Source: Amphiscolops sp. MND2022
Lineage: Eukaryota
NCBI GenBank assembly: GCA_964187785.1
Contig: OZ076411.1
Coordinates: 35,836,001-35,900,000, forward strand
Length of the DNA: 64,000 bases
Direction: 5' to 3'
Shown: in pieces, positions 10,189 through 30,858 of the stretch
Layout of the letters: each line of letters starts with the position of its first letter
Numbering within the stretch: position 1 is the stretch's first letter
Notes under the pieces: model-generated
Seen by the model: only the letters and a program-made list of their open reading frames with translations
Told to the model about the DNA's origin: nothing
The model's database searches: none
Position numbers and translations under genes: made by a program

Positions 10189-10312
10189 TGTCGCGCTATG
10201 ACTAACGCTCTAACGAATCACCAAAAGGCGCTTTCTATTATAAAAAATAACACTTGCAAAGAGAAACATAAAACTTGAACTAACGTTGTGTGGAGAGTGG
10301 AAAGTTGAAGTA

Positions 10313-10323
10313 AATATGGCGGC
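10313..10323 (+). promoter_or_regulatory. YY1-like motif in LTR U3
   Basis: AATATGGCGGC fits the AANATGGCGG consensus; single short motif. Confidence 0.3.
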
Positions 10324-10892: not shown

Positions 10893-11106
10893 AAATTATA
10901 TCTTAGAATAATTCCGCTGATTCAATTCTGCGGATTCTATTTTATAATAATTCCGTTGATACAATTCTGCGGTTGTTAAAATTATATCTTAAAATAATTC
11001 CGCTGATTCAATTCTGCGGAGTCTATCTTATAATAATTCCGTTGATACAATTCTGCGGTTGTTAATATTATATCTTAGAATAATTCCGCTGATTTAATTC
11101 TGCGGT
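10893..11106 (+). repeat. LTR-internal tandem repeat, 2.5 x 86 bp (five ~43-bp subunits); also at 27252-27465
   Basis: Recurring TAATTCCG(C/T)TGAT(T/A)(C/T)AATTCTGCGG core. Confidence 0.9.
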
Positions 11107-11776
11107 TTTCCCCTATTAACTCATTTGTCTTTACCATTCCCATATTCAAAAAGTCTTAATGCTATTCCTAAAAGAAGAGGAGTAGAGACTATAAAATTAA
11201 ATAGTGTTGTCTAAGTTATTACAACACCGAAACTGAATTTTTCGTAAAAAAACTTTCTTCGAACTAAAGGAAATTACTATGAATTTCCTTCGATGCTAAA
11301 TGTATTCATCAATTTGTGCCCTAGATTGAAATAGCTAAGATATTACTTCTGTTGCTGGTAAATAAATTTGGTGAGTTGACTGAATATTGTAAACAGTTGA
11401 ATAAAAACTGATATGTCTGAAGAATTTTATTATGTCCTGAAGTTCAGCTCTTTTATGTAATTCAACAAGTTTGCTAGCATATGCTTTTTTTTATAGTTCA
11501 GAGAGCTCATTTACATTCACTGCCTTGCACTTACTCACGCAAGTTCCTTTGTTCGCACGTACACGCAAGGCACTTTCTTTTCGGTATTACAAAAAATTAC
11601 GTTATTGAGACTTTTCTACTTGTTCTACTTCAATAAAACAACAGTTGTCTGAAAAGCACCTTGCAAAATGTTGTAACAGCTGAGCTGACTAATACGGATA
11701 ACAAATTTGGAATTCCCCTCTAAAAGAGGAAACTGTAAAATAGTAGAACTGAAATATATCCATGCGTGCGACAAAC

Positions 11777-11794
11777 TGGTGCGACCAGTGAGGC
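11777..11794 (+). promoter_or_regulatory. Primer-binding site of element 2
   Basis: TGGTGCGACCAGTGAGGC, 3 nt after the LTR. Cognate tRNA uncertain; the ..TGAGG end resembles elongator tRNA-Met complements. Confidence 0.75.
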
Positions 11795-12815
11795 TTCCTT
11801 TTTCTCTTACTATAGAGAAGTAAATGAGCAATCTGTTCGAATCCCTACTCTCAGAAGTTAGGGTTAACTACCTATTTCTCTTAATCTTACTTCTGATTTT
11901 CTTTTTTCTCCTACTGCCCCAATATGTGGCTTCTTTAGTCTATATAAATTATAGAACTGCTAGTAAATACTCTAATAGAATCTCTCCAGCTTAACAGCCT
12001 TTGGAAAGACTGTACTCTACTCAACTTAGTCTTCTCAATCCACGAAAAGGTTAGCGCTGATCTACTTTTACGGAAATGCTAGACTACATTCGGTCCTAAA
12101 CAAGAATGAAACTGCTCTCTAAAATGGAATCCAAACTTACAGTTGGGAAGTTCACTTGAGTCCAGACGGACCCTGAGAAAAAGCCCGCCTAGGTCTCCTC
12201 GGAGGCTGATTGAAAGCCGTGAGCCCAGTAGGTGTCCTGGAACCTGTGTAGCATTCCAAGTGGGAAACCTAGAATTCTTAGAATTCTAGTGATAGTACCC
12301 TAGTGTTTGCATGATAGTGATCTTGGCCCTGCGCTACTTAATCCTGAGGACGAGAGTGACTCCCTCTGTTTGCTACTTATACTACTTCTACATGAGCCAC
12401 TAAAAGGCTAGACTATCAAATCGAAGACCTATTGGACCGACTGTACTCTTTCAAAATTTCCTTTTGGCTTAATTCGGAGGATTGGTATACCCCGAACTAC
12501 CCTTTTTACGGTAATCGTAACACAAGTGGGATTTGTAAGTATCCCCTAAAATTTTGAAATTTCAGTAATAAATACGGGGAATGTGCCTACCCTGGGCTGA
12601 GATGCGCTAATTTCATTTTTACTAGCAGCGAATTACGGAGTATATGTTTTGTCAGACCTGCCTAATAATTATCACTGTTAGAATCATTGTACAAACAATT
12701 TTTACTTCCGCTCTTTGTAGTTACTCTCAAAAACCAGGAGTATCATACCTCATAGAGTCTTTGGCTTATTTTTCCTTACTTCATCTTCTATCTTTTATAA
12801 CCTCAATAGCTCACA

Positions 12816-14270
12816 ATGGCTGCGCAAAATTACTTGGCTTACCCAGACCTAGGCCGAGACCAATTCACAGGAACAGACCCAGATCAAGATCCTGAACAAT
12901 TCATACAGCTCATTGAAAAGAAGTTCCGGTTTTCTCATGGTGATACCCCAGCCAACGGACCAGCACTTGATGACTACAACTTCAGAAGAAAATCCTATTT
13001 TGCTACACTATTAAGAGGACCCGCAGCAGAGTGGTTCGAGACCAGCATCACAGACGCTAACACTTGGGCAGAAATCAGAGAGAGGTTCATAACGCGATTC
13101 GCAGATGGCAGAAACAAGTTTAGACACAGAATGGAAGCCGAACACGTCATCAGACGAGATGGAGAGGAAATAAAGAACTTCCTACACAGAATTAAAATAG
13201 TAGTCGGAAAAGGATGGCCAGATGATCTAGCCGGAGTCGCACAGAACAATAGAGACGCTGAAAGAGCAGCACAAGATAGACAAAGAAGACAGAGGTGCAT
13301 TGACTACTCACTGAGAGGCCTTCGACCCCCGAAACTGAGGGAAAAGGCACACGAATACTTAATGGATCATCCGAATGCAACTTGGGAGCAGTTCTCTCAA
13401 GCTGTAATAAACAAAGACCTTTCTTACACAGTAACTACCTCTCTCACCGGTGGAGAATCACACGCAGACCCACTTATCCAAGAATTGCGAGAAGACATCA
13501 AAGGAATCAAGCTACAAATCAAGGAACAGACGAACAACACTATCAATGCGATAGAGAAAACTGTTGATCCGAACGCAACAGGACGAAGAATGGCCACCAG
13601 GTTTTGCAGCTACTGCCGAACAAATGGGCATACGCCTAACTGGTGCAGAAAGAAGATGAGAGATGAAGAAATCAAGAAAGTTCAAAATGAATCCAACCCA
13701 GAGAGACGAATAACTTTCACCAATGATTACAACAAAAGAACTGGACCTGGACATGGTTCTAGATTCCAAACAAGACTACCCGATTCAGAAATCAGAAAAC
13801 ATATGGCTGTGGCACATCAACTAGCACTTGCTGGAGCCATGCAGTCAAACCCTGCCCGGAACCAATATGATATACCACAAAGAAGAAATTTCAACCCAGA
13901 ACGCCGACCTATGAATACAAGATTCAGTCCTGGTAACCAAAGATTTTCACAAGAAGGAAGAAGACCTTTTCTAAACAATTCTAACAATTCCAGAAGTGTT
14001 TCTCCTGGACCCCAAAGAGCAAGATCTCCGTTCAGCTTCAACAGAGACCAGCCTAGCTCTTTCAATCGCAACATACAACCTCTCCCACCAAGGAATAACT
14101 CCGTCTTTCAGAGACCGCAAAACAGAAACGAAAGACCTAACACCCCCACGCAGACTTATGAACAAAGATTCCCCAAAACAAACGACATGGGAAGGTCCAA
14201 CACAGTACAATTCCTTGAAACTGACTACTCTGTGAACTCGGTAGCCGACTTTCGCCCTTTAAACTACTAA
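12816..14270 (+). CDS. gag: Gag, 484 aa
   Basis: Retrotransposon-gag-like N-terminal region (LRGPAAEWF...W.EIRERFITRF), CCHC-like knuckle CSYCRTNGHTPNWC, R/N/P-rich tail. Confidence 0.93.
   Translation: MAAQNYLAYPDLGRDQFTGTDPDQDPEQFIQLIEKKFRFSHGDTPANGPALDDYNFRRKSYFATLLRGPAAEWFETSITDANTWAEIRERFITRFADGRNKFRHRMEAEHVIRRDGEEIKNFLHRIKIVVGKGWPDDLAGVAQNNRDAERAAQDRQRRQRCIDYSLRGLRPPKLREKAHEYLMDHPNATWEQFSQAVINKDLSYTVTTSLTGGESHADPLIQELREDIKGIKLQIKEQTNNTINAIEKTVDPNATGRRMATRFCSYCRTNGHTPNWCRKKMRDEEIKKVQNESNPERRITFTNDYNKRTGPGHGSRFQTRLPDSEIRKHMAVAHQLALAGAMQSNPARNQYDIPQRRNFNPERRPMNTRFSPGNQRFSQEGRRPFLNNSNNSRSVSPGPQRARSPFSFNRDQPSSFNRNIQPLPPRNNSVFQRPQNRNERPNTPTQTYEQRFPKTNDMGRSNTVQFLETDYSVNSVADFRPLNY
14258..14264 (+). 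promoter_or_regulatory. -1 ribosomal frameshift slippery site T TTA AAC
   Basis: Correctly phased in the gag frame two codons before the gag stop; the -1 frame is open from here into LLDTGA of pol. Confidence 0.85.
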
Positions 14271-14380
14271 GGTCTCCGAAAAACAAAAACAGCAGCAGTG
14301 CCCCGCTAAAATTTAGTCTTAACCTTTATTATTTCGCTGCCGGAGACTCACAAAAAGATAGTGGCTTAGAAATTGAATTT

Positions 14381-17300
14381 TTGCTTGACACTGGGGCGAC
14401 ATCCTCAATTATCAACTACAGAACCTTCAGAGAACTTTGTCAATTTCAACAAGACCTCGAACTCAACAGGAGCAACAACACAACTCGGAACTACTCTGGT
14501 CAAATCATCCCTATGATGGGATACATTTCGCTAAGTCTCTACTATGACTCCGATGGACAGCACAATTTCCCACTGACAGTTTGGATCACGGAGATGAAAA
14601 CGCAAAACCTGCTTGGAATGAACTTCTGCCAAGAGCAAGTCAACAAAATACATTTCGACCTTCCCGGCATAGAACTGAAAAGGCCTTTAAATACTTTCTG
14701 CTACGGAAGTCTTCAATTAAACAAAATTTACCCCTATGTATCACAAATCTTAACAGTCAAAATTCCTCACTCAATGTATATTGAACCAAAGACGACAAGA
14801 TGCTACAAGTTCGCTCCCGAAAACACGAAAAACTCCTTCCCCCCCGGATCCACGTTCCTACCCAATCGAAAAGCAGTCTCCACTGGACTCAATTTTATTA
14901 ACGTCCTATGTACGAGGTTCGAAAAGACTTTGCCAATCGTCATGGAAAACAACAAAAATCATACTATCACCTTGGTAAAGGGAACAATTGGATACTCAAT
15001 GCTCGACGTCTTGGACCAAGAAATCCCAAAATATCAGATTAGAAACCCTACAGAACTCGCCTATACCATTTTGAACGAAAATGAAGAATACAACGACTGT
15101 TTTCTACTACACTCAACTATACCCTCACAAGACTTGAGCGATTGCCTCAGGATAGAAGGAGGAAATTCAAAGACAATACTCAACAGGCCCGATCCAATCA
15201 TCATCTTTGTCCCTGCGGACCTGAAACCAAATAAGGGTTTTTCTAAAGAAATTCTAACTAACATACCCTCACTAAAGAACACTTGCTCTAAGCAAAGACC
15301 ACAGAAGGGAGAAACCATACCTTATTGGGACGAGACTTTGAAAAGATTCATTTATGTCCTAATCACAAAAACTAAAGCAAAAGACAAAATTGACCCACAA
15401 ATGCTGGTCCAATCCTTGGAAACGCTAAAGGCACATGCCAAAATGCACGGTATCAAGACGATCTCTATGTTACGAGAAGCCTCGGAATTAGAAGATTTCC
15501 AATGGCAAGATGTCACACACTTGATACAAGACGTTTTTGCCTATTCCGAAATACAACTACGAATCTTCACCAGAAACGAGCTAGACGTTTTCGCTATGAC
15601 CACAAGAGGAGACCCAGAATATGCGGTAGAAGACGAGATACAACAATTCTCAGAACAATTCCACCTCAAACACAGAGAGCTAGAAACAGATTTCACCAGC
15701 GATGCAAAGTCCTGCCAACCAACATGTGACGAACAATTCAAAATTTTCAGACCTAAAGAAGAAAATGAACGACTAATCGAATACTACCTACAATATCAGA
15801 ACAAGGAAGCAGTAAAATACATCAAGGAATTCGACTTTCGGTACTCCGACCTAACAGACGAAGAACTTGTCCTCCTGATAGACTTACTAATGGAAGCAAG
15901 AGATGTATACTCACAACATAAATTTGACGTTGGGAAAACCAAACAAAAATTTAATATTAAACTGGAACCCGGAGCAATACTAAAACGACAAAGACCCAGT
16001 AAAGTACCCTTACACTTAAGGGAAAGACTGGAGAAACTACTAACACAGCTTAAAGATGCAGATATCATCAGAGAAATGGGTGACGATGACGAAATGGGAT
16101 CTCTATTCGTGAATCCAATTATCTTACAACCCAAACACGATTATGTTAAACTGATCATAGACGCACGATATCTAAACTCGATTACTGATCTGACAAACTA
16201 CTCTTGGCCCTTAGAGCCCATCCAAACCATAATGACACTCATAAATGGATCAATCTTTTCTGTGAGTGATCTCTCATGCGCTTTTCACCAAGTACCACTA
16301 GACGAGCCTACACAGAAACTTACCAGCTTCATCATTGGCGGAAAACAATACACTTTCACCAGAGGATTCTATGGACTTAAAGGATTACCCAGCTTCTTCA
16401 GTCGTATGATGACAATCCACTTCGAACCCCTCATCAAGAAGAAACAAGCGATTACATACATCGACGATACGCTGATGCAAGCCAAAAGCAAACAAGAAAT
16501 GTTCACAGTAATCCAAGAATACCACAATTTACTACGAAAAGCCGGACTCAAAGCAGCACCCGACAAAACGCTTTTCTTCTTGAGGAAAGTCAAATTTCTT
16601 GGACACGTAATAACAGCAGAAGGAATACAACCAGTGGCAAAACGTGTTAAGGACCTCCATAATCTCAAATCACCAAAGACAAAAACCGAAGTCAAAAGTT
16701 TCCTTGGAGCACTCGGATTCTACAGCTGCTATATTAAAAATCTCCATGTTGATAGCAGACCATTTTACGAACTCACAAAGAAAGACACGAACTTCTGCTG
16801 GAATCAAGAACACGAAGACCTCTTCCAGGAAATAAAGAAACGAATCAGCGAAGACACAGTACTGGCAGTACCCTCAACGAAGTACCCCTTTCATATACAC
16901 GTCGATTCCTCTAACGTAGGGACAGGATGCATACTAATACAACAATTTCCCGAAGGGAAACGAATTATCTCCTTCAATTCACGAGTTTTTGCCAAAGAAG
17001 AACAAAAAATGTCAACCCTACATAGAGAACTGTGTGGCATCGTCTCCGCCCTTCAAACGTACGAACATTACATCATTGGATCCCCTTTCCCAATTTATCT
17101 ATACTGTGACCACAAACCCATTCTTTATCTTTGGGGACGAAAAGGACAAATCTCACCGCGATTCTTCAGGTATCAAGTAATTATATCCAAATTTCCAAAC
17201 CTGAGGATCATATGGACACCAGGAAGTAACTTAGCCTTCCCAGATATACTCAGTCGGAATGTCTCAATTGAAGAACATAAGACACATCAACTCAGCCACA

Positions 17301-19774
17301 AGATCCTACCAAATGACATACAATTCTTCGACGAACATGGAACACCGGTGCACTACAAGATAAAACATGAAGAAAATGAAGAAACTTCTAAGAACGACTT
17401 TTACCCTATTTTGTACGAGAAAGGAAACGAACGAAAAATCTTACATTTACAAAACGATGGAAATGACTTTACGGTCAACAACCTTTACGAAGAACCTGAT
17501 CTAACGAACATCGAATCTGCACAGGACTGTTTCGAGGCGGGGAAGACACTTGAAAAATACGAAGAACTACGAACCAGATCCGGCACACAAAACAGCACAC
17601 CCGATTTATCACAAAATACTTACAGTTCTCTCAACAGCGACACAGACGACGAAGCTCCCACGAAAAAAGAACCACAAGAAGTCAATGAAACCAACTACGA
17701 GATTAATACCGAAATCCTCTCAGAACCTGAAGAAGATACCCCCGAAACAGGCCAGGTAGTCAAAAACTTCAAAATCTCAGAAGCAATACCCCCAATACAA
17801 GAAAAATCAAAGAATCCAGCCCGCGATCTCGTCAACAAACTTGATAAACTATCCAAAGAAGTAGATCTCAACGTCACAACAATCTTACAAGAACAAATAA
17901 ACGACCCCGTGCTCAGGGTAGTCCGACAATGGGTGAGAACAGGAAACAAGCCTGCGCCAAAATCCCCAGAGCTACAGCACTCTAAAGGTCTTATGCGATA
18001 CTTCCAAGAGTTTGATAGACTAACAATAGAAGAGCCTGGAAACCTCCTTTGTTATAACGAACCTACAGATAGCCCTGAAGACGAAAATCTACGAATATGC
18101 TTACCTCTCTCTCTATTTCTTGCCTGTTTTCGAATGGGACATTACAATGACCTCGGAGGTCACATGGGAGCGGAAAAAACCTTCTTGAACGCCAAAAGAT
18201 TTTACTACTGGCCAGGGATGCACGACTGGATCTGCGCACTCACACAAGATTGTGTCAGCTGCCAGTCTAACAAATCCAAACAACGAAGAAACAACGAGGT
18301 CCCCCTAGAAGATTGCGAAACTGAAACTCAAGTATTCAGAACAATCCACATAGACCACAAAGGACCACTCAACCCTCCTAGTCGTGGAAACTCACATTGC
18401 CTCCTTATTATCGACGCCTTCTCACGCTACTTGATGGCATACCCTGTTAGGGACACAGGGGCACAATCGACAATCAACGCGATGGAAAAATGGATTATGC
18501 ACTACGGCATCCCGCAATCCATCATACATGACAGAGGAACAGCTTTTATGAACACGGAATTTGTCAATTGGACTAAAGAATTTGGCATCACCCTTAGACC
18601 AAGGACAGCACATTCACCTTGGACAAATGGCAAAGTAGAAACCCAAAATCAGCACATTGCACGATACTGGAGAAATTTCCTCAACGAATCTGGAAACAAT
18701 TGGGCTTTACTAGCAGCAAAATTTGCATTTGCTCATAACACCAGTGTCAACTATACCACTGGAAAGACACCATACGAAATAGTCTTCTGCAATAAACCAC
18801 AGATACCTATGAGCCTGAAGTTGGGTCTATACCGTAATAAAAATAAGAATTGCAGATCACAGTTCTGCAACGGACTGCCTCCTCACTGCCACAGCGAAAA
18901 CCAAGTTAAAAACGAACTGCTGAATGGACTATTAAGACCTCAACTATCTCAAAACCTGCTTGAAAGAGAGACCGCCTTCAAGAAAATCTATTCGTCCACT
19001 TACGAAAAATGCAGAAAACAAACAGCTCGATCTCATGCCTACAGAAACAGATTTAAACTAGGCAGCCATCTCAACATCGGACAAAAGGTTTTGTTAGAAA
19101 ACCATCGGAAAGACCTCTCCAAAAGTCAAAAACTTCAACAACTGCGATTAGGACCGTTTACGGTTACCAAGAGAATCACCAACACAACATACCAAATAAA
19201 AGACGATCAGAACCCCAAAAATCTCCGAACTGTCCATAGAAATCATTTAATAGAATACTTTCCCAAAGAGGAAACACTCCCCCCTCTTATAGAAGAATAC
19301 ACAACCCCCTACCGTGGAGACACGGATTTCTATAACAATTTTGTCAAAGGAAGAATAGAACGACTTAATGTTTCAGAACCACAGATACTCGGGGATCTCT
19401 GCATTTTACCAGTCCGAAACCAACAAAGACAGACCACCGCACAAAAACGAGTGAGAACTCCCCAGAGCACCGACTCTGGTATTATTTCCCCAGAAAATCA
19501 CCGGTTGGGAACACCAACAACTCCGGATCAGCCTACTACATCCCGTCCTCCTGGTTCAACTACTCCTATCCAAACACTGACGCAACAAATAACACCCGAA
19601 CCCTTGACTACCACACCGGCTACTTCGACCAAATCTTTGACACCCCTACAAGAACTCAGGCGAGCGGTTGCAAGTCACGTCGAAAGAAATCCCCGCTATC
19701 AGCGAGCACAACCCAACCAACCAGCACCACTGTCCATCCTTCGGCAAAAAACTCGAGTAGGCTACAAAGCCTAA
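14381..19774 (+). CDS. pol: Pol: protease, dUTPase-like spacer, macrodomain, RT, RNase H, integrase (translated as Gag-Pol from ~14260)
   Basis: LDTGA; RT LIIDARYLN, FHQVPL, FYGLKG, YIDD; RNase H VDSS, ELCGIV, CDHKP; integrase H..H/CVSC, IDHKGP, HDRGTAF, NGKVE; GPF motif. Confidence 0.97.
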   Translation: MLDTGATSSIINYRTFRELCQFQQDLELNRSNNTTRNYSGQIIPMMGYISLSLYYDSDGQHNFPLTVWITEMKTQNLLGMNFCQEQVNKIHFDLPGIELKRPLNTFCYGSLQLNKIYPYVSQILTVKIPHSMYIEPKTTRCYKFAPENTKNSFPPGSTFLPNRKAVSTGLNFINVLCTRFEKTLPIVMENNKNHTITLVKGTIGYSMLDVLDQEIPKYQIRNPTELAYTILNENEEYNDCFLLHSTIPSQDLSDCLRIEGGNSKTILNRPDPIIIFVPADLKPNKGFSKEILTNIPSLKNTCSKQRPQKGETIPYWDETLKRFIYVLITKTKAKDKIDPQMLVQSLETLKAHAKMHGIKTISMLREASELEDFQWQDVTHLIQDVFAYSEIQLRIFTRNELDVFAMTTRGDPEYAVEDEIQQFSEQFHLKHRELETDFTSDAKSCQPTCDEQFKIFRPKEENERLIEYYLQYQNKEAVKYIKEFDFRYSDLTDEELVLLIDLLMEARDVYSQHKFDVGKTKQKFNIKLEPGAILKRQRPSKVPLHLRERLEKLLTQLKDADIIREMGDDDEMGSLFVNPIILQPKHDYVKLIIDARYLNSITDLTNYSWPLEPIQTIMTLINGSIFSVSDLSCAFHQVPLDEPTQKLTSFIIGGKQYTFTRGFYGLKGLPSFFSRMMTIHFEPLIKKKQAITYIDDTLMQAKSKQEMFTVIQEYHNLLRKAGLKAAPDKTLFFLRKVKFLGHVITAEGIQPVAKRVKDLHNLKSPKTKTEVKSFLGALGFYSCYIKNLHVDSRPFYELTKKDTNFCWNQEHEDLFQEIKKRISEDTVLAVPSTKYPFHIHVDSSNVGTGCILIQQFPEGKRIISFNSRVFAKEEQKMSTLHRELCGIVSALQTYEHYIIGSPFPIYLYCDHKPILYLWGRKGQISPRFFRYQVIISKFPNLRIIWTPGSNLAFPDILSRNVSIEEHKTHQLSHKILPNDIQFFDEHGTPVHYKIKHEENEETSKNDFYPILYEKGNERKILHLQNDGNDFTVNNLYEEPDLTNIESAQDCFEAGKTLEKYEELRTRSGTQNSTPDLSQNTYSSLNSDTDDEAPTKKEPQEVNETNYEINTEILSEPEEDTPETGQVVKNFKISEAIPPIQEKSKNPARDLVNKLDKLSKEVDLNVTTILQEQINDPVLRVVRQWVRTGNKPAPKSPELQHSKGLMRYFQEFDRLTIEEPGNLLCYNEPTDSPEDENLRICLPLSLFLACFRMGHYNDLGGHMGAEKTFLNAKRFYYWPGMHDWICALTQDCVSCQSNKSKQRRNNEVPLEDCETETQVFRTIHIDHKGPLNPPSRGNSHCLLIIDAFSRYLMAYPVRDTGAQSTINAMEKWIMHYGIPQSIIHDRGTAFMNTEFVNWTKEFGITLRPRTAHSPWTNGKVETQNQHIARYWRNFLNESGNNWALLAAKFAFAHNTSVNYTTGKTPYEIVFCNKPQIPMSLKLGLYRNKNKNCRSQFCNGLPPHCHSENQVKNELLNGLLRPQLSQNLLERETAFKKIYSSTYEKCRKQTARSHAYRNRFKLGSHLNIGQKVLLENHRKDLSKSQKLQQLRLGPFTVTKRITNTTYQIKDDQNPKNLRTVHRNHLIEYFPKEETLPPLIEEYTTPYRGDTDFYNNFVKGRIERLNVSEPQILGDLCILPVRNQQRQTTAQKRVRTPQSTDSGIISPENHRLGTPTTPDQPTTSRPPGSTTPIQTLTQQITPEPLTTTPATSTKSLTPLQELRRAVASHVERNPRYQRAQPNQPAPLSILRQKTRVGYKA
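15188..15568 (+). other. TARG1/OARD1 (Poa1p-like) macrodomain embedded in Pol between PR and RT
   Basis: RFIYVLITKTKAKDKIDPQMLVQSLETLKAHAKMHGIKTISMLRE...FQWQDVTHLIQDVF..SEIQLRIF aligns by eye with TARG1 [45 protein letters not shown]...LQWENVSAMIEEVF..TDIKITV. Confidence 0.85.
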
Positions 19775-19782
19775 TCTGCATC

Positions 19783-20169
19783 ATGCCTTGTCATAAAGTT
19801 TACCTAAACCTACCATGGCAAGTTCCACGAGAACTCCAATCTTTAAACGTTCTACACGTTACAATCACAAAAATCTACTGGACCTACACAAACAAACTAG
19901 TTAGAATTTGCTTCTACTCCAACGACCCAGACCCGAGCCCCCACAAACAACCTACGCCCCGAAAATCAAATCTTCATGTTCACCCAGAATCAAAAACGTT
20001 TGCTCAACTATATCAACACCTAGCATACCATGCAGTCAACCATCACGACCCTATCCTAGAAGAACTCTTATCCTACATGCCTACCCTAATTCCTGACCTA
20101 CAACCTTCACCACCTAATACTCAGAAGGACCTATTCTGCTGCTCTACTATTTACTCACCTAGCTCCTAG
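19783..20169 (+). CDS. Accessory small protein A (128 aa), unknown function
   Basis: ATG 8 nt after the pol stop; shares a motif pattern with the ORFs at 21223-22173. Confidence 0.65.
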   Translation: MPCHKVYLNLPWQVPRELQSLNVLHVTITKIYWTYTNKLVRICFYSNDPDPSPHKQPTPRKSNLHVHPESKTFAQLYQHLAYHAVNHHDPILEELLSYMPTLIPDLQPSPPNTQKDLFCCSTIYSPSS

Positions 20170-20326
20170 CCGGCACATTTAACCTATTAACGATGTATTA
20201 CCATTAATTTACTTTACTTTAGTTTATCGATATTTTTTGTGCAATCCCGAACATGACTTACGAAAAGCCACAAACACAGAAGCATAGAAAAATAGTAATT
20301 TCCTGGAGATGAGAGGCGATGTACGC

Positions 20327-20977
20327 CTACTCAATCTCCAGGAACCCTCCTCGCTCCGCCAAGCGCCGCAGCTGAGCCGCCCGCTCTCCCATGGTCCACA
20401 AAGAATACAGACGGGACCACTGTCCCCTCTCGAAACTGGTCAGTTGCGAAAAGCCGTTTATGTAGGCTCGCAACTGGAAAATTATGATTTCACCAAGAGG
20501 GGACAATAGGGTCTGCTCCCAACGGGCCCCCAGGTTAGCCCGCATGAAACTAAATAATGAATTGGGACCGGGAGGCCCCGAGACAGAGAACCCTGGAGTC
20601 CCCCGAAGAGAACTGGTTAGAGACGCCCAGTTTTCCAGGCGGTTCACGTCTCGGCGGGTATAGAGCCCCATAAAGCTCTGCTCAGCCGGGTTCTCCAGCT
20701 CTCCCCGGGCAATAGTAGCAGGCGCTTGAGGCACAATACTGTCAGTCCTCGGGGCCACAACCGCCACGAACGACCCACCACTAGAGGACGGACCTGCTGA
20801 AGAAGCAGGGGACACAGAACTAACAGCAGTAGAGGACGGACCAGCTGCAGAAGAACTAGAAGATACAGTTGTCGGGCCATTCCCCGACTCTTCGTCGGTC
20901 GAGGACTCCTCGTAGTAGTCCGAAAAGTTCTGATTGTTGCTCATTCTAAACACAACATTGTGCTTATCAAAAGTCAT
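20327..20977 (-). CDS. Antisense accessory ORF (216 aa): acidic, Ser-rich N-half and globular-looking C-half
   Basis: ATG-initiated 651-bp ORF; no long sense-strand ORF overlaps it; local composition differs from the A/C-rich sense genes. Confidence 0.6.
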   Translation of the reverse strand: MTFDKHNVVFRMSNNQNFSDYYEESSTDEESGNGPTTVSSSSSAAGPSSTAVSSVSPASSAGPSSSGGSFVAVVAPRTDSIVPQAPATIARGELENPAEQSFMGLYTRRDVNRLENWASLTSSLRGTPGFSVSGPPGPNSLFSFMRANLGARWEQTLLSPLGEIIIFQLRAYINGFSQLTSFERGQWSRLYSLWTMGERAAQLRRLAERGGFLEIE

Positions 20978-21222
20978 GTAAACCTATATAAATACCTAGT
21001 AATAGAAATTTATAACACCTATTTATTTAATCATATACCTCACTATCACACAATACAGACCAATGTCGATTCTTTACTTTTCTGCATGCAACCATGTGCC
21101 CCAAAAAGGGTCGTGTTCATATGTTTCAAATACATAAATTCCCAAAGGCAATGAAATAACTGATGATTCCATTCTCAGATTTGCTATGTTTGAACAACAG
21201 TGAACACTGAAGTATCTCACAG

Positions 21223-21444
21223 ATGATCATAATCTTCAAAATTGACAACCGTCTTTCACAAATCACCGATATCCAGAAGGAACCCTCAACGCAAAACATC
21301 ATCATACAAGCATACGCAATAGCTGAAGAAGAAAGTGAAACCTACACTTGTGTGCCAGCATCACCCATCTACCCTCTACTGGAGAGCTTGCTATATAACA
21401 ACACCCCTACTGAAGTCTTCACTAGAGCCAAGTCAGTCATTTAA
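21223..21444 (+). CDS. Accessory small protein B (73 aa)
   Basis: ATG directly after ctcacag; stop overlaps the next start (TAATG). Confidence 0.55.
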   Translation: MIIIFKIDNRLSQITDIQKEPSTQNIIIQAYAIAEEESETYTCVPASPIYPLLESLLYNNTPTEVFTRAKSVI

Positions 21445-21839
21445 TGTCCTCTCCCGGAGTCGCCGTGTTCCGCGGAAATAATTACTACTTCCACACACAG
21501 TTTCAACCTCCTGTTCCTTGGACCCCCATACAACTCAAGGGCCAATACGAAATACAGTCAATCTTCTACGAGATCACTACCTCTGCAATTCAAGTGCGTA
21601 TACTCACACCAGAAGACAAAGAAGCTCTAGTCCTCTTCCCTATTCACTTCGGCTCCAAGGAATACGCTTACTTATTCCTATCGTTCAAGCAATATATACT
21701 CCAACACCCTGCAGTCCTCAAAGACAAGGCTTTCGACGACTTGGTTTACTTTATGGACATCACTCTCACCTCCAACCCCTTTGAAGAAGAAGTTAGAATC
21801 AAATACCTTCACAGCCTAGTCGACACTTATGATGTTTAA
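21444..21839 (+). CDS. Accessory small protein C (131 aa)
   Basis: TAATG-coupled to B, overlaps D by 11 nt; element-typical codon bias. Confidence 0.7.
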   Translation: MSSPGVAVFRGNNYYFHTQFQPPVPWTPIQLKGQYEIQSIFYEITTSAIQVRILTPEDKEALVLFPIHFGSKEYAYLFLSFKQYILQHPAVLKDKAFDDLVYFMDITLTSNPFEEEVRIKYLHSLVDTYDV

Positions 21840-22173
21840 GATTCAGCTCAAGTTTCTCTGGCGCCACCCTGAAACAAATACACTTCTCGAAATTCTCTCT
21901 ATCGCTTGGAAAGAAAACGCACCTTCACTACAAATCGAACTCCATAGCCTCCGACCACAAAACCCAGGACATTGGCTCATCCCAGTTGACACCAACTCCC
22001 AAGAGGCTACTGATCTCTCACTCGCACTAAAGGAATATAGGCAAATTGCCTATCTCGACCACATCCACCCTCTAACACTGTTCCTCCTCAACAAGCTCAT
22101 TGACTTCCTCGAATTGAGACGACGAAACAAAACCTCTCCCAGTCTACAATCAATCCGTGACAACTACAATTGA
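21829..22173 (+). CDS. Accessory small protein D (114 aa)
   Basis: Start overlaps the end of C; shares the A/B/C motif pattern. Confidence 0.7.
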   Translation: MMFKIQLKFLWRHPETNTLLEILSIAWKENAPSLQIELHSLRPQNPGHWLIPVDTNSQEATDLSLALKEYRQIAYLDHIHPLTLFLLNKLIDFLELRRRNKTSPSLQSIRDNYN

Positions 22174-22218
22174 ACTTTCAGCAATGGTTGAAGTTAGTCT
22201 CTTTTAACTTCCTATTTT

Positions 22219-22672
22219 GGCACTTTTTAACAGTAGTGAGGTTACTACTATAAAATTTTAACCTCCGCTTAGTGCTAGTGCCCACTAAGCTGCCGGTTTG
22301 ATATTACGGCTTGCCTTTTTACGGCCTTATAACGGATCCTCAATAATAAAATATACTAAAGCTTCAATAATTAACCTACTCTTCGGCACTTTTTTAACAG
22401 TAGTGAGGTTACTACTATAAAATTTTAACCTCCGCTTAGTGCTAGTGCCCACTAAGCTGTCGGTTTGATATTACGACTTGCCTTTTTACGGCCTTACTAC
22501 GAATCCTCCTCTCTGGAACACACACCTATTTCCCTGAAATAATAAAATACTTATCGTTCCCCTCGGCACGTTTTAACAGTAGTGAGGTTACTACTATAAA
22601 ATTTTAACCTCCGCTTAGTGTTGTGCCAGCTAAGCTGCCGGTTTGATATTACGGCTTGCCTCTTTACGGTCT
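22219..22672 (+). ncRNA. Three tandem ~110-nt structured RNA elements (starts 22219, 22385, 22565)
   Basis: Conserved hairpins, loop-to-distal complementarities and a compensatory C-G to T-A change in copy 2; separated by unconserved spacers. Confidence 0.7.
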
Positions 22673-22750
22673 CTACTAAACACTTAAACTGATTCTTTAA
22701 CAGGGAGCGATTACACGGTTGATTCAAAAACAGACTGAAGAATTTCAACA

Positions 22751-24898
22751 ATGAAATTATTTTTCTTACTCTTCTTATGCGCCAATTTCGCGCCCGTTGT
22801 GAACTCACAACGTTCAACGCCAAACCTCGCTAGCGTTGCTAAAAAATTGCGAGTAACTCATTTCGACTGCGGCGAAATGACACAAAATAAGCTCTACGCC
22901 TTGAATCAAGTAGAGCAATGCAATGTGGCCCCGGAAAACTTAGAAGTAAGTCGTGCTAGCGTGACGTTATACACTAAACACTTTCGTCGCACTATCAACG
23001 CTACTATGTGCCGTGTGAAACACCAGAGTGAAGAATGGCATTGTGGTCATAATGACCACTCCAGTATGTCAATCCTACACAACGGAATCACCAGCGATAT
23101 TTCCTTGTCACCCGAAACCTGTAAGGCCATGGGCGAAGGCAAAGAAGTCATGATCCATGGACAACCCCTCAAATTTAAGAAAGGAGTCAAACAAGTACAG
23201 ACGAGAAACGCCAAATACGGAAAAAGTTGGGATGGAGTACGTGACCCTGATACCCGTAATGAGTGCAAGACAGGCGGATGGATTAAACGCGAAACCTTCG
23301 AATCTCATATTCAAGACGTAGAATTATCAGTCAAAACCAGAGACGGGAAAATCCTCACACCCTTCCAGATGGTTCTCCCCTGCCCCCTGGAACAACTCGG
23401 CTGCGAAACCACGTCATTGGACCCGTACGCCTATACATGGGCAGAGCCAGATAACTGCGTGCTCGCAGTCCACAGAAAAGAAATAGTGAATATGATCAAA
23501 CATGGCTCTAACTACTATATAGTTAGCGGCAACGACTCCACTACCAAGTTCCTATTCGAAATATACAACAGGCCACAGAAATACTGCAACAAACCCGATG
23601 ATGTCTACCCTACCAATTACGAATCCCTCTACGTTTCGACCCAATTTGGTGGCTTCGACATGACTTCTGGCAGACGACTCGGCATCTCCATGGGAGAAAC
23701 CTCCAAACTTCAATATTACTCACCCAACGATGGTTCTGGTAATGGCAGACTCCACCTCTTCAGAGGCCCCAGCGACTCCAACCCCAACACACCACATTAT
23801 CTCAACATGGATTACGAACTCCACCAAGGAACCAAGTTAGATTATCTCTTCTTTGAGAGCACCCGCTTACTCGAAGCTTCAGAGATCCAGCTATTGAAAG
23901 CTCAATGTGAGCAAGAACGAACACAAATCCTTACCATCCTGATGTTATCCATGGAAAACCCACGACTCGCCGGATACATGCTCACGGGAAATCGCTCGAT
24001 GTTCCTGAACACAGATGGTAGCCTCGCATGGCTCTACCACTGCCCGGAATCCCACTCACCTCTTCACACGATGAACCAATGCTACGACCGCATACCAATC
24101 TTCTACAAGGGAGTGGTCGCCTTTGTAGACCCCATAACCCGACAAACATATCCTAACGCGAACGTACAAAACTGCACAGATCGTATTAAGAACCTCTTCC
24201 AACTGGACATGGAAGACAAAGACTCCTGGTTCACCCTTACACCTTCACCCGAACATCGGGACCGGCCTGCTATCTTCGGACCCAAAGACATCCAGCCAAT
24301 GATTACCAGATCTTTCCCAGGATCACAGGACGCGGGAATGTACACTCCCAAGCAACTCTCCGAGTTTTGGGACAACATCCTCATCAGCGCCGCATCACGT
24401 AATGCCCTCCAGAAGTTCTCAAGAGAGCTCATCATACCCTCCATGGCCCACAGCGGACCAGAATCCTTCGCGTATTACGCACCTCGTACAGATTTCTATG
24501 TCGACGGAATGATTTCACCCGACTACTTTAAAAATCAGTTCCTCGAAACATTCGGAAGTATATCTTATGTACTAGAACTCTGCGGAGCGTACTTTGGCGC
24601 TTTCCTTTTTATCAAGTTCGTCATAGATATCACGGTACTAGTCTTCCGCTACTTCGAACTTCGTCACCTTACGGGTAACACACTGAGCTTCACTAAAACC
24701 TTGCTCAGTGCTTCGTACAACCTTTTCTTTACCTCTGTTTTAACTTCCGTATTTACCCCGCGGGCCCCTTTCGAGGATAGCATTGAAGACAAAAGGGTAA
24801 AAACAGAAGACGAAGAAAAAGGAGTAGAACTCCAAATCCTAAAACAAAAAGAGGAATCACTATATCCCTCGGTACAGAGCTTTGTTGCTCCAATATGA
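22751..24898 (+). CDS. env: Envelope glycoprotein, class III-like (chuvirus G / herpes gB-like), 715 aa
   Basis: Signal peptide MKLFFLLFLCANFAPVVNS; FDC...LYALNQVEQC and C...HCG..HS cysteine pattern; sequons NAT, NDS, NRS, NCT; C-terminal hydrophobic TM segment (LELCGAYFGAFLFIKFVIDITVLVF). Confidence 0.85.
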   Translation: MKLFFLLFLCANFAPVVNSQRSTPNLASVAKKLRVTHFDCGEMTQNKLYALNQVEQCNVAPENLEVSRASVTLYTKHFRRTINATMCRVKHQSEEWHCGHNDHSSMSILHNGITSDISLSPETCKAMGEGKEVMIHGQPLKFKKGVKQVQTRNAKYGKSWDGVRDPDTRNECKTGGWIKRETFESHIQDVELSVKTRDGKILTPFQMVLPCPLEQLGCETTSLDPYAYTWAEPDNCVLAVHRKEIVNMIKHGSNYYIVSGNDSTTKFLFEIYNRPQKYCNKPDDVYPTNYESLYVSTQFGGFDMTSGRRLGISMGETSKLQYYSPNDGSGNGRLHLFRGPSDSNPNTPHYLNMDYELHQGTKLDYLFFESTRLLEASEIQLLKAQCEQERTQILTILMLSMENPRLAGYMLTGNRSMFLNTDGSLAWLYHCPESHSPLHTMNQCYDRIPIFYKGVVAFVDPITRQTYPNANVQNCTDRIKNLFQLDMEDKDSWFTLTPSPEHRDRPAIFGPKDIQPMITRSFPGSQDAGMYTPKQLSEFWDNILISAASRNALQKFSRELIIPSMAHSGPESFAYYAPRTDFYVDGMISPDYFKNQFLETFGSISYVLELCGAYFGAFLFIKFVIDITVLVFRYFELRHLTGNTLSFTKTLLSASYNLFFTSVLTSVFTPRAPFEDSIEDKRVKTEDEEKGVELQILKQKEESLYPSVQSFVAPI

Positions 24899-24929
24899 AT
24901 TATTATCTCATTTCGTAGTTTACGTTTAG

Positions 24930-25532
24930 AATTTAGAACCCTTATTCGACCTCCCAAACCTGGACGACGACATCCCTAACTCTATCTTAGAAGACGACTT
25001 GCAGATAGAACCCTTATCACCTTCTGACCTGCTGTCAACTGCTTCTCCCACAACTATTACCTTTCTCCTAGATCCCCCAGACTCAACAGTTCCTTCTCCG
25101 ATTCCAAGCGCCCTAACAACAACACCCTCTCCAACGACACCACTACAACTCCCCTTTCCGCTGTCATTTACAGAAGAGGTAGCGCCTATCCCATCAACTC
25201 AACATCCACCTCGATCGCCCCAACATCCACCCCGCTTCGGCGGAAAAGACATAAGACGGGCACTACCCAGGAAACACCAACAACAATGGAATGACAAAAT
25301 AACAGATGACACGCCACTGAAGAAACAACACAAGCGGGAGTACTTCACTAAACGAGCCAGACACGTTAAGAAACCCAGATTCAACACAGAGTTGAAATAC
25401 ACTCTCCTCCCACAATTCTCAACTTGGAAAATCGTTTTCTGGGATAACAAGAGACAAGAGTACACCATAGAGAACCCAGCCCTAAAGGGACAAAGACTAA
25501 CGGTCCCCCTAAGAGCCATCTCAGCACAATGA
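24930..25532 (+). CDS. Accessory ORF X: acidic N-terminus, Pro/Thr-rich middle, basic C-terminus; no ATG
   Basis: Frame open from 24930 (track calls a TTG start at 24999); its stop overlaps the next ATG (ATGA at 25529-25532). Confidence 0.55.
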   Translation, partial: NLEPLFDLPNLDDDIPNSILEDDLQIEPLSPSDLLSTASPTTITFLLDPPDSTVPSPIPSALTTTPSPTTPLQLPFPLSFTEEVAPIPSTQHPPRSPQHPPRFGGKDIRRALPRKHQQQWNDKITDDTPLKKQHKREYFTKRARHVKKPRFNTELKYTLLPQFSTWKIVFWDNKRQEYTIENPALKGQRLTVPLRAISAQ

Positions 25533-26431
25533 ATCGGAGGCTAAACCCAGACGCTATCCCCTTCATCCCAAAAAGCACTCCTTACTTCCCCAAAGCTAAC
25601 GACTGGCCACCTCTATCCAGGACAGAGAATAAAGATGACCTCGAGACACTCGAGGGAATCAAAAGATTGAACAAATGGATCGCTGAACTAGAAGTCTCAA
25701 CTAGCCCACAAAGTGAAAAGGTAACCCCGATCCTAAGGAAATCGTTCCCCATAACCGACATAAAACAGTCTAGAACAAAGCTTGCTAGTGAAATGAAACA
25801 ACTCCAAAACTTGGCAGAAGAAACGCGGACTAAATGTAATCACTTGGAACTCACAATATCCGATCTACAAGCGACAATCAAGTTTCAAGGCGCCCTACTC
25901 AACAAAACCAACGTATTAGACGCAAGAAGCGGTGAACCCATCCTTTGGCACATACCCGCTTTTTCCACACTATACAGAAAAGCAAAGACCTCCCCGAATG
26001 ATACGTTGAACAACATCAAAAATAGCTTCACTAGCCCTATCTACACTACCCACCTAACCGGCTGCAAAATATCCCTCAGACTATTCCCTTATGGCGCCAA
26101 CATCTTCCGCGGAACCCATTCCTCAATTTCTTGTGATCTACACCCCAGCGACTTCACTCTCCCACGAACGTGGCCTTTCGAGCAACAATTGATCGTCTCA
26201 ATCATAGACCAAAAAGACAAGAACAACAAATGGTCCATCTCCTTTCCCTATCCCTCCAAAACAGAAGAGTATGAAGACCCGCACAAGAACGACTACACAC
26301 TCCCAGGACTGATGAGAGAAGACTTCATCGCGCACACAAAACTCCTGGTAAACTTTAGAGAAGCCTTCCTAAACAATGACTCCGTCATAATCCAAATTCA
26401 ATTTGACAGACCTCTTTTTTCTAAACCCTAG
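25529..26431 (+). CDS. PAM2 motif + coiled coil + TRAF-C/MATH domain protein (300 aa), lacking RING and Zn fingers
   Basis: ILWHIPAFSTLY...SPIYT...GCKISLRLFPYG...GTHSSI...WPFEQQLIVSIIDQ...FI....FLNNDSVIIQIQF follows the TRAF-C consensus (LIWKI, SPPFYT, GYK.C.RLYLNG, GTHLS, WPF.QKV...LLDQ, Y..DDTIFI.V). N-terminal LNPDAIPFIP. Confidence 0.88.
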   Translation: MNRRLNPDAIPFIPKSTPYFPKANDWPPLSRTENKDDLETLEGIKRLNKWIAELEVSTSPQSEKVTPILRKSFPITDIKQSRTKLASEMKQLQNLAEETRTKCNHLELTISDLQATIKFQGALLNKTNVLDARSGEPILWHIPAFSTLYRKAKTSPNDTLNNIKNSFTSPIYTTHLTGCKISLRLFPYGANIFRGTHSSISCDLHPSDFTLPRTWPFEQQLIVSIIDQKDKNNKWSISFPYPSKTEEYEDPHKNDYTLPGLMREDFIAHTKLLVNFREAFLNNDSVIIQIQFDRPLFSKP

Positions 26432-26533
26432 TGCTAAAACATGTCCCCCTTCCCTCATGCTCTTTCACCTAATACCTCTTTCTTGACCTGACCCCAAATT
26501 TCTCTAGTAAAGTTGTTGCTTTTTCACCCTGCC

Positions 26534-26544
26534 AGGGGGGTGAG
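26534..26544 (+). promoter_or_regulatory. Polypurine tract of element 2
   Basis: AGGGGGGTGAG 1 nt before the 3' LTR. Confidence 0.85.
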
Positions 26545-26545
26545 C

Positions 26546-28132
26546 TGTCGCGCTATGACTAACGCTCTAACGAATCACCAAAAGGCGCTTTCTATTATAA
26601 AAAATAACACTTGCAAAGAGAAACATAAAACTTGAACTAACGTTGTGTGGAGAGTGGAAAGTTGAAGTAAATATGGCGGCGGCCATAACGCGGCGGCCTC
26701 GAAGTGGAGTAATAAGTAATGGAATACTACGGGAAAGGAATTGCACAAGTGAAAATTTCTATTTCTTACCGCGGATATTTGAATTTTAAAGCTGAGCTAC
26801 CATTGGTAGCATGCAACACATGCCGGCCAGGCACTTCAACAGCTGTGCTGAACTGTTTTTATACCGCGCACACAGGCTGGAGATTCATTCTTTCCCGCCG
26901 GACGGCTGAGCTCAACTTACAGCTCTCTCTCTCTCTCTCTCTCTCTCCTCAACTTATCAATTCCTCTACTTCTCTTACACTTACTCTCCCCCTTCTCCCC
27001 CTCGACTCTTACTCTCCACTTTCTCTTTGCTTACATTGCACTTGTCTTATCTCAGACTTATAAAGTCAAACTTTCCTCCTTTTCTCCCTTCTCTCAAGCA
27101 AAAACTTATCTTTGCTTTTTCTCTATTCCCCAACAGAATTTTCTATCTTAGAAAATTCTCTTCAATTCAACTTGGTCTCCAGTTTGGTGAGTCGAAAATA
27201 TCTTAGATTTTTTCTTTTAGAGGAGATTTTTTACTCTCCCTCTTTCTAACTAAATTATATCTTAGAATAATTCCGCTGATTCAATTCTGCGGATTCTATT
27301 TTATAATAATTCCGTTGATACAATTCTGCGGTTGTTAAAATTATATCTTAAAATAATTCCGCTGATTCAATTCTGCGGAGTCTATCTTATAATAATTCCG
27401 TTGATACAATTCTGCGGTTGTTAATATTATATCTTAGAATAATTCCGCTGATTTAATTCTGCGGTTTTCCCCTATTAACTCATTTGTCTTTACCATTCCC
27501 ATATTCAAAAAGTCTTAATGCTATTCCTAAAAGAAGAGGAGTAGAGACTATAAAATTAAATAGTGTTGTCTAAGTTATTACAACACCGAAACTGAATTTT
27601 TCGTAAAAAAACTTTCTTCGAACTAAAGGAAATTACTATGAATTTCCTTCGATGCTAAATGTATTCATCAATTTGTGCCCTAGATTGAAATAGCTAAGAT
27701 ATTACTTCTGTTGCTGGTAAATAAATTTGGTGAGTTGACTGAATATTGTAAACAGTTGAATAAAAACTGATATGTCTGAAGAATTTTATTATGTCCTGAA
27801 GTTCAGCTCTTTTATGTAATTCAACAAGTTTGCTAGCATATGCTTTTTTTTATAGTTCAGAGAGCTCATTTACATTCACTGCCTTGCACTTACTCACGCA
27901 AGTTCCTTTGTTCGCACGTACACGCAAGGCACTTTCTTTTCGGTATTACAAAAAATTACGTTATTGAGACTTTTCTACTTGTTCTACTTCAATAAAACAA
28001 CAGTTGTCTGAAAAGCACCTTGCAAAATGTTGTAACAGCTGAGCTGACTAATACGGATAACAAATTTGGAATTCCCCTCTAAAAGAGGAAACTGTAAAAT
28101 AGTAGAACTGAAATATATCCATGCGTGCGACA
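26546..28132 (+). repeat. 3' LTR of element 2
   Basis: Copy of 10189-11773 with 2 extra bp in the (CT)n tract. Confidence 0.97.
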
Positions 28133-28887: not shown

Positions 28888-30858
28888 AGCACATATGTCA
28901 ACAAAGTAAAGCCATTTTTTGTATCCATATTCACTTGGAAGCGGTGGCAAAATATTTCACTTTGAATAATTTCTCTTGAGAGCTTTTCTCTGAAATTGCT
29001 TCACCTTTGTTTCCAGAAGCTGAAAAGATTCTGTCAGTCTGGAACCAGATTTCTATCGACTTTTGTTCATCCTGTGCGTATAGAGATTTTCACCAGAAGC
29101 TCAAGCAGATGATTTAAATTTCAAAAGCGTCAATTCAAGGCTTGCTATGATAGTTTCCGAGATCTATCAAACCGATTTAGAAACTAAAGATACTAGCGTG
29201 CAAAAACTATTGATCTGATACTTTTTCGTTTAGATACGATAAAGACGTCAACCGAGTCTGAGAAAAAGACCAACAGCATTAATTTTTCATCAATAATGGT
29301 ATTGAAATTTGGTCAGCGAGTACTCGTACAAAAACGATTGGGTATTCTTTGCAGTTTTATGTCATGTAGCATAAAACTCTAATCCCTTCTATTAACCTTC
29401 GTTAAACGTTGTTTGAAATTTTTTGCTACAAAAATTCAATAAGACGCCCGCTGAGCAGTGAGATATTTTCCGCCCCAAACTGTTCTACAACTACATAAAT
29501 TCGAACCTCAAGAATAGCCGAAGCACTAAAAAACGCAAAGAAGTTCGATGAAAAGAAGCTTTGATTCATCTTAGCCGATTTTAAAGGAAACACCTAATTC
29601 ATTATTTCCGCGCTAGCTGGCCCCTTGTTTTTTGGCACTATGCGACTTACCGAGAAAAGACAAAAATTTCAATAACATTTTTGAAAATAATTTTAGAAAA
29701 ACATTTTTTGCAATTTTTAGTTTTTGAGGTTTCCTGTGAAAGAAATGAGTTTCCCGAGCCTAGGGGGTGACTTCTTGGTTACTTTTGATCATATGGAACT
29801 GACGAGGGTTCCTATTGATTGTGGAAATTACCTCATTTCAATTTTTTAGACTCTGTGTATCTTTCCGAAACATTCATGTGGGTGGTCAAAGAGTACCTGC
29901 TTGCTTTTATAGCTGATTTCGGTTTGAGAAAAGTAGTTTGCGAGCTGAACTTTAGCGGAAAAAATTCTAAAACGGATTTTTTGTGATTCCTGTTGTGGAA
30001 CAAGTGGTTTCCTAGTCTCAGGCGTATTTCTTTAGGTAATTTTAGGAACTGATAAAATGCTGAAAGCTTGAAACTAGGTCCTTTACAATTTTATTGAAGT
30101 TGAGCGATGCCGGTTTGTTATATTGAACAGAGTTTCACCAGAAGTGTCAAAAATTGGAAATAGTTCCGAAATCGTTGGGGTCAGTTTGAGGAACTTTTCT
30201 AACATGAATCTACATATGTATCTTCGAAATCAAGCCTACTGGACACCGGGTTTAGTTGTTGTTGAACGTTTACACTATTCTAACCCACGAAGTAGCTGGA
30301 AACATTTTTCTTTGGAAGGTGTACCCCAAATCTAATGATTTTGCTTGGAGGTTTCGAATATTGAGTATTAGACAAATGAGGCCAAGATTTACGCTTTCAA
30401 GTTTTCGAAAATTGTGCAAATAAACTTGTCTGATATACCGGTAGCTACACGTTTCAATCCTGAGCCTATGGTAATTCTGATTGAAGTAAACTTTCCGAAA
30501 GTGTCTAAAATTGGGACTATGTTGTCAAAAATGAAGATAGTGCGGAAACGTTGACACTTTTGTTGTGAACACGATGAATTTCATCACTTTTATCCCTATT
30601 ACATTTTGAAGATCTTTTTGTTTCAACGCTCAGATCATTGGAAGTTCAAATCTTCAAAAACTTTCGTGGTTTGAACAACAATAGGGATTAGTATGTCAAA
30701 CAACGTGCTTTTTTGAAGTTTGATTGATTTTTGGGCGTTTATGAGGCCAATTCTTTCAAAAACATGCAGTAATCTTTTCAAAATTGCTCAATGGAGAAAC
30801 CCAAGTTAGTGAATTTTGAGTTTTTTAAACTTTTTGATGCAAGGAAGTAGCTCAAAAA

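Follow-up and report, generated by a model that had tools for sequence, protein, structure and literature searches.

Tandem pseudoknotted RNA units upstream of env in an Amphiscolops Ty3/gypsy-type retroelement: a possible nuclear-export signal

Introduction

Which role could a folded RNA play when it is repeated three times just ahead of an env gene? This question is raised by a stretch of 64,000 nucleotides from Amphiscolops sp. MND2022 (assembly GCA_964187785.1, contig OZ076411.1, positions 35,836,001 to 35,900,000), hereafter the window. An LTR element in it carries three folded units of ~107 nt upstream of env, within 22219-22670. A sequence-only reading had described three copies of a double-pseudoknot-like fold just 5′ of env, with covariation, and had listed an IRES, an exoribonuclease-resistant RNA, a packaging signal, a ribozyme and a splice acceptor as candidate roles. 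Our analysis shows that the array is a real, selected and previously uncatalogued RNA module; most likely it is a trafficking signal whose functional kind is known but whose setting is new.

The host element and its copies

The array is part of a young Ty3/gypsy-type LTR element of 17.9 kb (10189-28132, forward strand, as are the features below unless stated) in which LTRs, a target duplication, gag, the PR-RT-RH-IN order and an env-like ORF are all present. The 5′ LTR (10189-11773, TG...CA) is 99.9% identical to the 3′ LTR (26546-28132) and the 4-bp target duplication reads TTCG. Within the 1.6-kb LTR, tandem repeats of 39-47 nt (10890-11107 and 27250-27466) differ in number among subfamilies. 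The gag gene (12810-14270) and the pol gene (14225-19774), with protease, RT, RNase H and integrase in Ty3/gypsy order, form one block (12810-19774). Env (22751-24898) is predicted to be a Monjiviricetes-type fusion glycoprotein of 715 aa (Pfam PF24664, E 5e-31).

Upstream, the array adjoins an accessory ORF of 117 codons from stop to stop (21820-22173). An ORF completed by splicing (24930-25532; 200 aa plus three) lies 3′ of env and joins an acidic and proline-rich N-terminal half to a basic C-terminal half, the latter conserved in five copies from different subfamilies. Neither ORF matches a known family, and the Atlas protein searches with two accessory proteins gave no usable match. A TRAF/MATH-domain ORF (25448-26431) also lies 3′ of env, and several small ORFs complete the coding content of the element.

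At least 15 copies in the genome are identical over unit 1 (40 scored of 140 candidates). Env relatives in this genome share, over the first 200 residues, about 91-100%, 66%, 50% (family B) or 44% (family C) identity, and the env relatives P0006, P0013 and P0011 find nothing above about 72% there. Three loci were recovered from metagenomes: L105 (41% env identity) is without an array, and L103 and L104 include little or no upstream DNA.

Architecture of the RNA units

Each unit comprises a clasp (A), an H-type pseudoknot (B/C) and the hairpins D, E and F, arranged in the order A - B - C - B′ - A-rich linker - C′ - D - A′ - D′ - E - F. A-rich loops are usual in H-type pseudoknots. In unit 1 (22219-22325) the clasp strand GGCACT (22219-22224) pairs with AGTGCC in the loop of stem D, which starts at 22267. 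Stem B (AGTAGT 22232-22237 / ACTACT 22244-22249) encloses loop C, whose GAGGTT (22238-22243) is complementary to AACCTC (22260-22265). Stem E (GCCG 22292-22295 / CGGC 22307-22310) carries the conserved and near-invariant loop GTTTGATATTA, which contains the self-complementary UGAUAUUA, two G-U pairs included. All helices proposed from the sequence alone were found in place; the small hairpin F (GCC/GGC, 22313-22325) was absent from that list.

The other two units differ from unit 1 in ways that had in part been anticipated. Unit 2 (22385-22492) shows the compensatory change GTCG/CGAC, which turns the C-G at pair 2 of stem E into U-A. In unit 3 (22565-22670) the clasp reads GGCACG/TGTGCC with a G-U at its sixth pair, as had been noted, but two inner pairs of stem D are also lost, leaving this stem shorter, and hairpin F contains a further G-U.

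In 50,000 dinucleotide shuffles of copy 1, the pseudoknot occurred 10 times, the pseudoknot with the hairpin once and all three features never; the descriptor is post hoc, being drawn from the observation itself, and the real copies pass it 3/3. The pseudoknot descriptor matches three places in the 64-kb window, all of them array positions. The nested folding energy of the units is unremarkable (z -0.5 to -1.6), as expected of a calculation in which pseudoknots go unscored.

The fold has no counterpart in the collections that were searched. An Rfam scan with E up to 10 returned no credible match and four weak ones (E 5-8), so that none of the ribozyme, IRES or xrRNA families envisaged at the outset was matched; at the gathering score there was no ribozyme in L024, L036, L044 or L046. 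The viral contigs searched matched neither the motif nor env relatives, and a full-text search of open-access literature found no description of the array RNA. We also considered a TATA box, as each unit has TATAAAA and family C has TATAAAT; this reading leaves the paired changes unexplained.

Covariation and evolution of the fold

A first alignment was built from 23 of 36 distinct units, the other 13 being near-duplicates. Seven of its 22 pairs vary on both sides and 95.3% of the cells pair; none of 500 shuffles equalled this, and slid controls reached at most two pairs. The larger tally covers 232 units from 105 of 109 loci, with indel-bearing units dropped and a few loci that are probable duplicates. 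As the loci are related by ancestry, locus counts are not counts of independent events. Two-sided changes common to at least two loci are found at pseudoknot pairs 3, 4 and 5, at D pairs 3 and 5 and at E pair 2, whose U-A form occurs in 48/105 loci. Clasp pair 3 covaries as well (GGTAC/GTACC in 28 units). Counting the clasp, two-sided changes are seen at seven pairs. Stem B showed no two-sided change common to loci in the same 232 units.

Pairing is preserved in a larger fraction of the shared variants (18/48) than of the singletons (7/45; Fisher p=0.02), and the CG-rich stem E holds many of the shared pairing breaks. We consider a selected RNA fold, as the sequence-only reading had proposed, to be supported by these patterns.

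The pseudoknot covariation derives from a single diverged subfamily with 66% env identity, which also refines the picture of the unit. In this subfamily a single GGCAC precedes the array, GTGCC is confined to the last unit, and three tight cores have one clasp and one F hairpin in common. The repeated core is therefore B/C-D-E, with the second pseudoknot as an outer closure. A double pseudoknot per copy holds in the window; in the 66% subfamily it gives way to one clasp per array. Unit number varies from 1 to 5 among copies.

The removable intron

The array and env are both enclosed by an intron of 2,737 nt (22193-24929). The preceding exon ends with three codons, ATG GTT GAA (22184-22192), which without splicing open a 7-codon ORF. 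The 5′ splice site GTTAGT (22193-22198) lies 26 nt upstream of unit 1 and the acceptor AG is at 24928-24929. Once spliced, the ATG at 22184 supplies a start to the otherwise start-less ORF at 24930.

The evidence for splicing comes from one retrocopy and from conserved sites. A genomic copy at L087/L236 shows an exact GT-AG join of the exon end at 22192 to the sequence after TTTAG at 24929. It is 5′-truncated and adjoins a non-autonomous element, and a genome-wide pattern search found this one exact spliced copy (L087). Among 26 junction matches with one mismatch, none of the nine checked is a splice junction. The GTTAGT donor is conserved in autonomous and non-autonomous elements (97 contexts, with eight loci missed by the anchor), the sequence after the TTTAG acceptor is also found in three other subfamilies, and the design of donor exon, acceptor and ORF recurs in the 66% subfamily. 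The acceptor is present in 11/11 autonomous reads, eight of them from the window's subfamily, and lost in 29/29 non-autonomous reads, a count in which some places appear twice and which reflects one ancestral event. On this basis, the intron 22193-24929 can be spliced out.

A similar arrangement is seen just past the primer site (11824-11862), where an ATG and 11 codons precede a donor-like GAA|GTTAGG, a design as in the exon at 22184. This leader site is 89% conserved in the non-autonomous element; a search for copies spliced there, run without a positive control, found none.

A non-autonomous family that keeps the array

A search with the upstream ORF gave about 45 matches that are limited to the end of the ORF and represent members of a non-autonomous LTR family. 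The family has about 45 or more copies of about 6.5-6.8 kb which are without gag and pol and retain env in scraps. Their order is LTR, primer site, a leader of about 130-150 nt, a remnant of the pol tail, a 182-aa ORF, the array, env scraps and LTR; the leader is lost from about 150 nt past the LTR onwards, and of the upstream accessory ORF just the decayed end is retained. The LTR pairs are 98.6-99.8% identical (L071, L072 and L074; 99.7-99.8% in L071 and L074), and both copies checked, L071 (1304-8063) and L074 (859-7393), are flanked by 4-bp target duplications. The family includes recent true insertions. A single internal cassette is found between LTRs of different helper subfamilies.

Units are present in 40/40 non-autonomous loci, with 1-4 units each; 20 of these were chosen via the array and 20 via the upstream-ORF remnant, independently of the array. 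Among further loci chosen via the 182-aa ORF, 7/9 have units (two of them weak) and the other two are truncated or rearranged. In the 32 non-autonomous loci with at least two units, and hence a spacer, each part was compared with its best match among 37 autonomous loci; the median identities are 0.97 (core), 0.78 (spacer), 0.86 (upstream sequence) and 0.86 (start of env). Comparison with four helpers gave the same pattern. Inside the family the excess is modest, with a slight peak along the element (array 0.92-0.93 vs 0.83-0.88 for other parts).

Exchange with helpers contributes to this similarity. In 5/32 non-autonomous loci the spacers reach 90% identity or more to a helper, and L175 and L178 are recombinants which combine a non-autonomous 5′ half with a whole env frame, the crossover lying near the array. 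Both findings indicate that helper exchange also refreshes the array. Nevertheless, selection on the fold despite a broken env suggests that the array acts in cis on the RNA that gets copied.

The 182-aa ORF itself is still open, with a weak MATH match (E 0.0035) and its closest autonomous homologue, at 51%, in the 66% subfamily. Its distant homologues (22-27%) are often paired, one on each strand with 2-3 kb between them (G000 C2:9950303-9953272 and similar).

AUG content ahead of env

From the donor to the start of env, 558 nt contain no AUG against 8.2 expected, and CAT is equally absent. The same tendency is seen in the spacers, with one AUG against 11.1 expected in 15 autonomous types and three against 10.1 in 13 non-autonomous types. 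Pre-env leaders of the sister families are similarly poor in AUG, with none in 1,093 nt in family C and one or two in about 600 nt in family B. The depletion implies that ribosomes probably scan this region on the env mRNA, which does not in itself make the fold an IRES. It also means that the env mRNA probably carries the array.

Function of the array

Among the possible functions, we favour a cis-acting nuclear-export signal for intron-retaining RNA, similar to the MTE of musD or the RRE of HIV, and give this reading a probability of roughly 0.4. The position within a removable intron in the 3′ half of the element, the probable presence on env mRNA and the variable number of copies all fit an export element. 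Each unit would fold as a compact protein-binding module in which the clasp A closes the pseudoknot B/C and the hairpins D and E. The unit would be bound by an export factor of the host or by a protein of the element itself, and the 1-5 copies would act additively. Full-length RNA, and probably env mRNA too, would escape nuclear retention via the array, and the spliced mRNA for the downstream ORF, being without it, would have no need of it. Non-autonomous RNA would take the same route to the particles of its helpers.

A close rival, in our view somewhat less likely, is a packaging or dimerisation signal by which Gag, through its nucleocapsid, would pick intron-retaining RNA for particles. Retroviral psi is found immediately 3′ of a splice donor, is missing from spliced RNA and is kept in non-autonomous derivatives. 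The array also lies 3′ of a donor, and its retention in env-broken copies (40/40 and 7/9 loci) and its place in the intron lend support to this part of the earlier proposal, as they do to export. Moreover, the non-autonomous copies have lost gag and the leader past about 150 nt, where such signals are usually found; spliced copies are nearly absent (one exact, and none at the leader donor-like site, where the positive control is missing); and the self-complementary sequence in loop E could serve dimerisation. On the other hand, psi is normally in the 5′ leader and the array is 10 kb downstream. The non-autonomous copies keep the LTR, the primer site and a conserved leader of 130-150 nt able to hold a signal. 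AUG depletion suggests that the array is also present on env mRNA, a location more in keeping with export than with packaging.

The export reading can be extended to a complete switch, which we find rather improbable as a whole. The basic C-terminal half makes the protein of the spliced ORF a candidate Rev-like partner. Splicing of the env intron would yield this basic protein, which would bind the tandem pseudoknots and export intron-retaining RNAs; sister families would have evolved different folds at the same site, and the non-autonomous parasite would have kept the array and lost the acceptor.

It is distinctly improbable that the array serves the translation of env, either as a scanning-type IRES or as an aid to re-initiation. 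Such a role would accord with arrays in AUG-poor pre-env leaders in all three families, but apparent selection keeps the array where env is broken, and the leader of L105 is free of AUG (0 in 356 nt) without having an array. IGR (type 6) IRESs, one of the kinds first suggested for this locus, place a 3′ pseudoknot directly before the open frame and start at a non-AUG codon. Although the array shares nested pseudoknots and an intergenic place before a structural gene with the dicistrovirus examples, it differs in its tandem copies, in the absence of an Rfam IRES match and in having no 3′ pseudoknot at the first codon: the 3′-most element of the unit is hairpin F, and no 3′ pseudoknot abuts the open frame. 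Between unit 3 and the env AUG, in-frame stops at 22685 and 22736 rule out an IGR-type start into env from that unit. An env frame that stays open across the last unit is seen in the 66% subfamily, a feature that is not conserved.

We are very doubtful that the units are exoribonuclease-resistant RNAs which leave a 3′ RNA, either subgenomic or non-coding. Some xrRNAs of RNA viruses occur in tandem, and the units resemble them in being compact, tandem and pseudoknotted, with a 5′ strand paired into a downstream loop. However, no Rfam family matched, the clasp of the 66% subfamily is not repeated per unit, and there is no evident benefit in cis to non-autonomous copies.

Similarly remote is a regulator of splicing, in which the fold would damp the adjacent donor or conceal the YAG acceptors where stem B begins. 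The donor is 26 nt away and a YAG stands ahead of stem B in 229/232 units, but the AG is itself paired within stem B and the T variant lengthens this stem. The pyrimidine tract varies and TTTTAACAG, the acceptor motif that the sequence-only reading had noted in each of the three copies, is found as such in 101/232 units. Furthermore, the array is retained although the acceptor after env was lost.

A new self-cleaving ribozyme is scarcely credible. The compact double-pseudoknot-like fold with invariant unpaired bases would be appropriate, and a stem whose 6-nt loop is fully paired, together with an A-rich linker, recalls P1 of pistol. However, the helix order of HDV-like and pistol cores is unlike that of the array, the likeness to these and to twister being one of compact pseudoknots, and no ribozyme family matched in Rfam with E up to 10. 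A ribozyme here would cleave the genomic RNA at 1-5 places, but young copies that run from LTR to LTR bear the array, and the retrotransposon ribozymes described in PMC6765202 liberate the ends of elements. Equally hard to maintain is a tandem repeat with no current function, homogenised by template switching: unit number does vary from 1 to 5 and helpers and non-autonomous copies do exchange sequence, but cores are alike while neighbouring spacers have diverged, and the two-sided changes at seven pairs disfavour it.

Sister families and distant relatives

Families B and C have their own, different tandem folds at the same pre-env place. In family C (L046:2501-3230) about five tandem units occupy a 1.1-kb AUG-free stretch before env, and the motif has 605 matches. 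Paired changes are seen here as well, with ACACGG/CCGTGT vs AGACGG/CCGTCT, and with ACACG/CGTGT, GCACG/CGTGC and ATACG/CGTAT in the last hairpin; the units of family C have no Rfam match. Family B (L044:3050-3500) has three hairpin-rich units which each end in GGTTAGCAAGCTACC, and the similar GGTTAGCAAG occurs once before env in family C. Model R2 of the window-type fold found no match in families B and C or in L105. The window-type fold (A) and that of family C have ATAAA and CG-G...A-CG features in common, and families B and C show a donor-like GTTAG at or after the ends of units. Convergence could be tested on two such tandem folds, which look unrelated and occupy the same place in sister families.

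Relation to known systems

The array is best compared with retroelement export elements (MTE, RTE, CTE and RRE). Like these it is located on intron-retaining RNA and removed by splicing, and a conserved tertiary RNA structure is likewise supported here by covariation; it has no Rfam match to a described element. Closest among them are the MTE of musD and the RTE of IAP, both from mouse LTR retrotransposons. The MTE is described as one element of ~400 nt beside the 3′ LTR, whereas the array, set against this description, is built of 1-5 copies of a ~107-nt unit and lies ahead of env in a gypsy-type element.

As outlined in PMC5767303, the HIV-1 RRE lies within env and is used by RNA that is unspliced or singly spliced. 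In C. elegans, export of the genomic RNA of the LTR retrotransposon Cer1 requires CERV, which is produced from a spliced mRNA of that element (PMC10309623); the main text of that paper does not use 'response element', 'cis-acting' or 'stem-loop'. In our element, the product of the spliced mRNA has a basic region that is conserved, and we regard this protein as a candidate partner only. The RRE is one branched stem, in contrast to the tandem pseudoknots of the array, and our protein has no family match.

Most descriptions of structured export or packaging signals concern vertebrate retroviruses and mouse LTR elements. To these the array adds, from a gypsy-type element with env, a compact module that covariation supports and no Rfam family matches; the non-autonomous family points to a cis role in the route of the RNA to copying. 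Since the unit is small and naturally varied, it is amenable to probing, structure solution and reporter assays.

Further features of the window

Several minor observations concern the surroundings of the array. Two accessory ORFs of no known family (21426-22173) overlap by ATGATGTTTAA, a possible case of stop-restart coupling, and are ~50% conserved in the 66% subfamily. Between pol and env, an antisense ORF of 218 codons (20327-20983, reverse strand) has a 37% homologue in the 66% subfamily. Outside the element, a tandem array (30856-35521) consists of units of ~1,355 nt built from ~183-nt subrepeats. Finally, a second pair of long direct repeats (52156-53822 and 61189-62861), ~9 kb apart and 92-96% identical, probably belongs to another LTR element.
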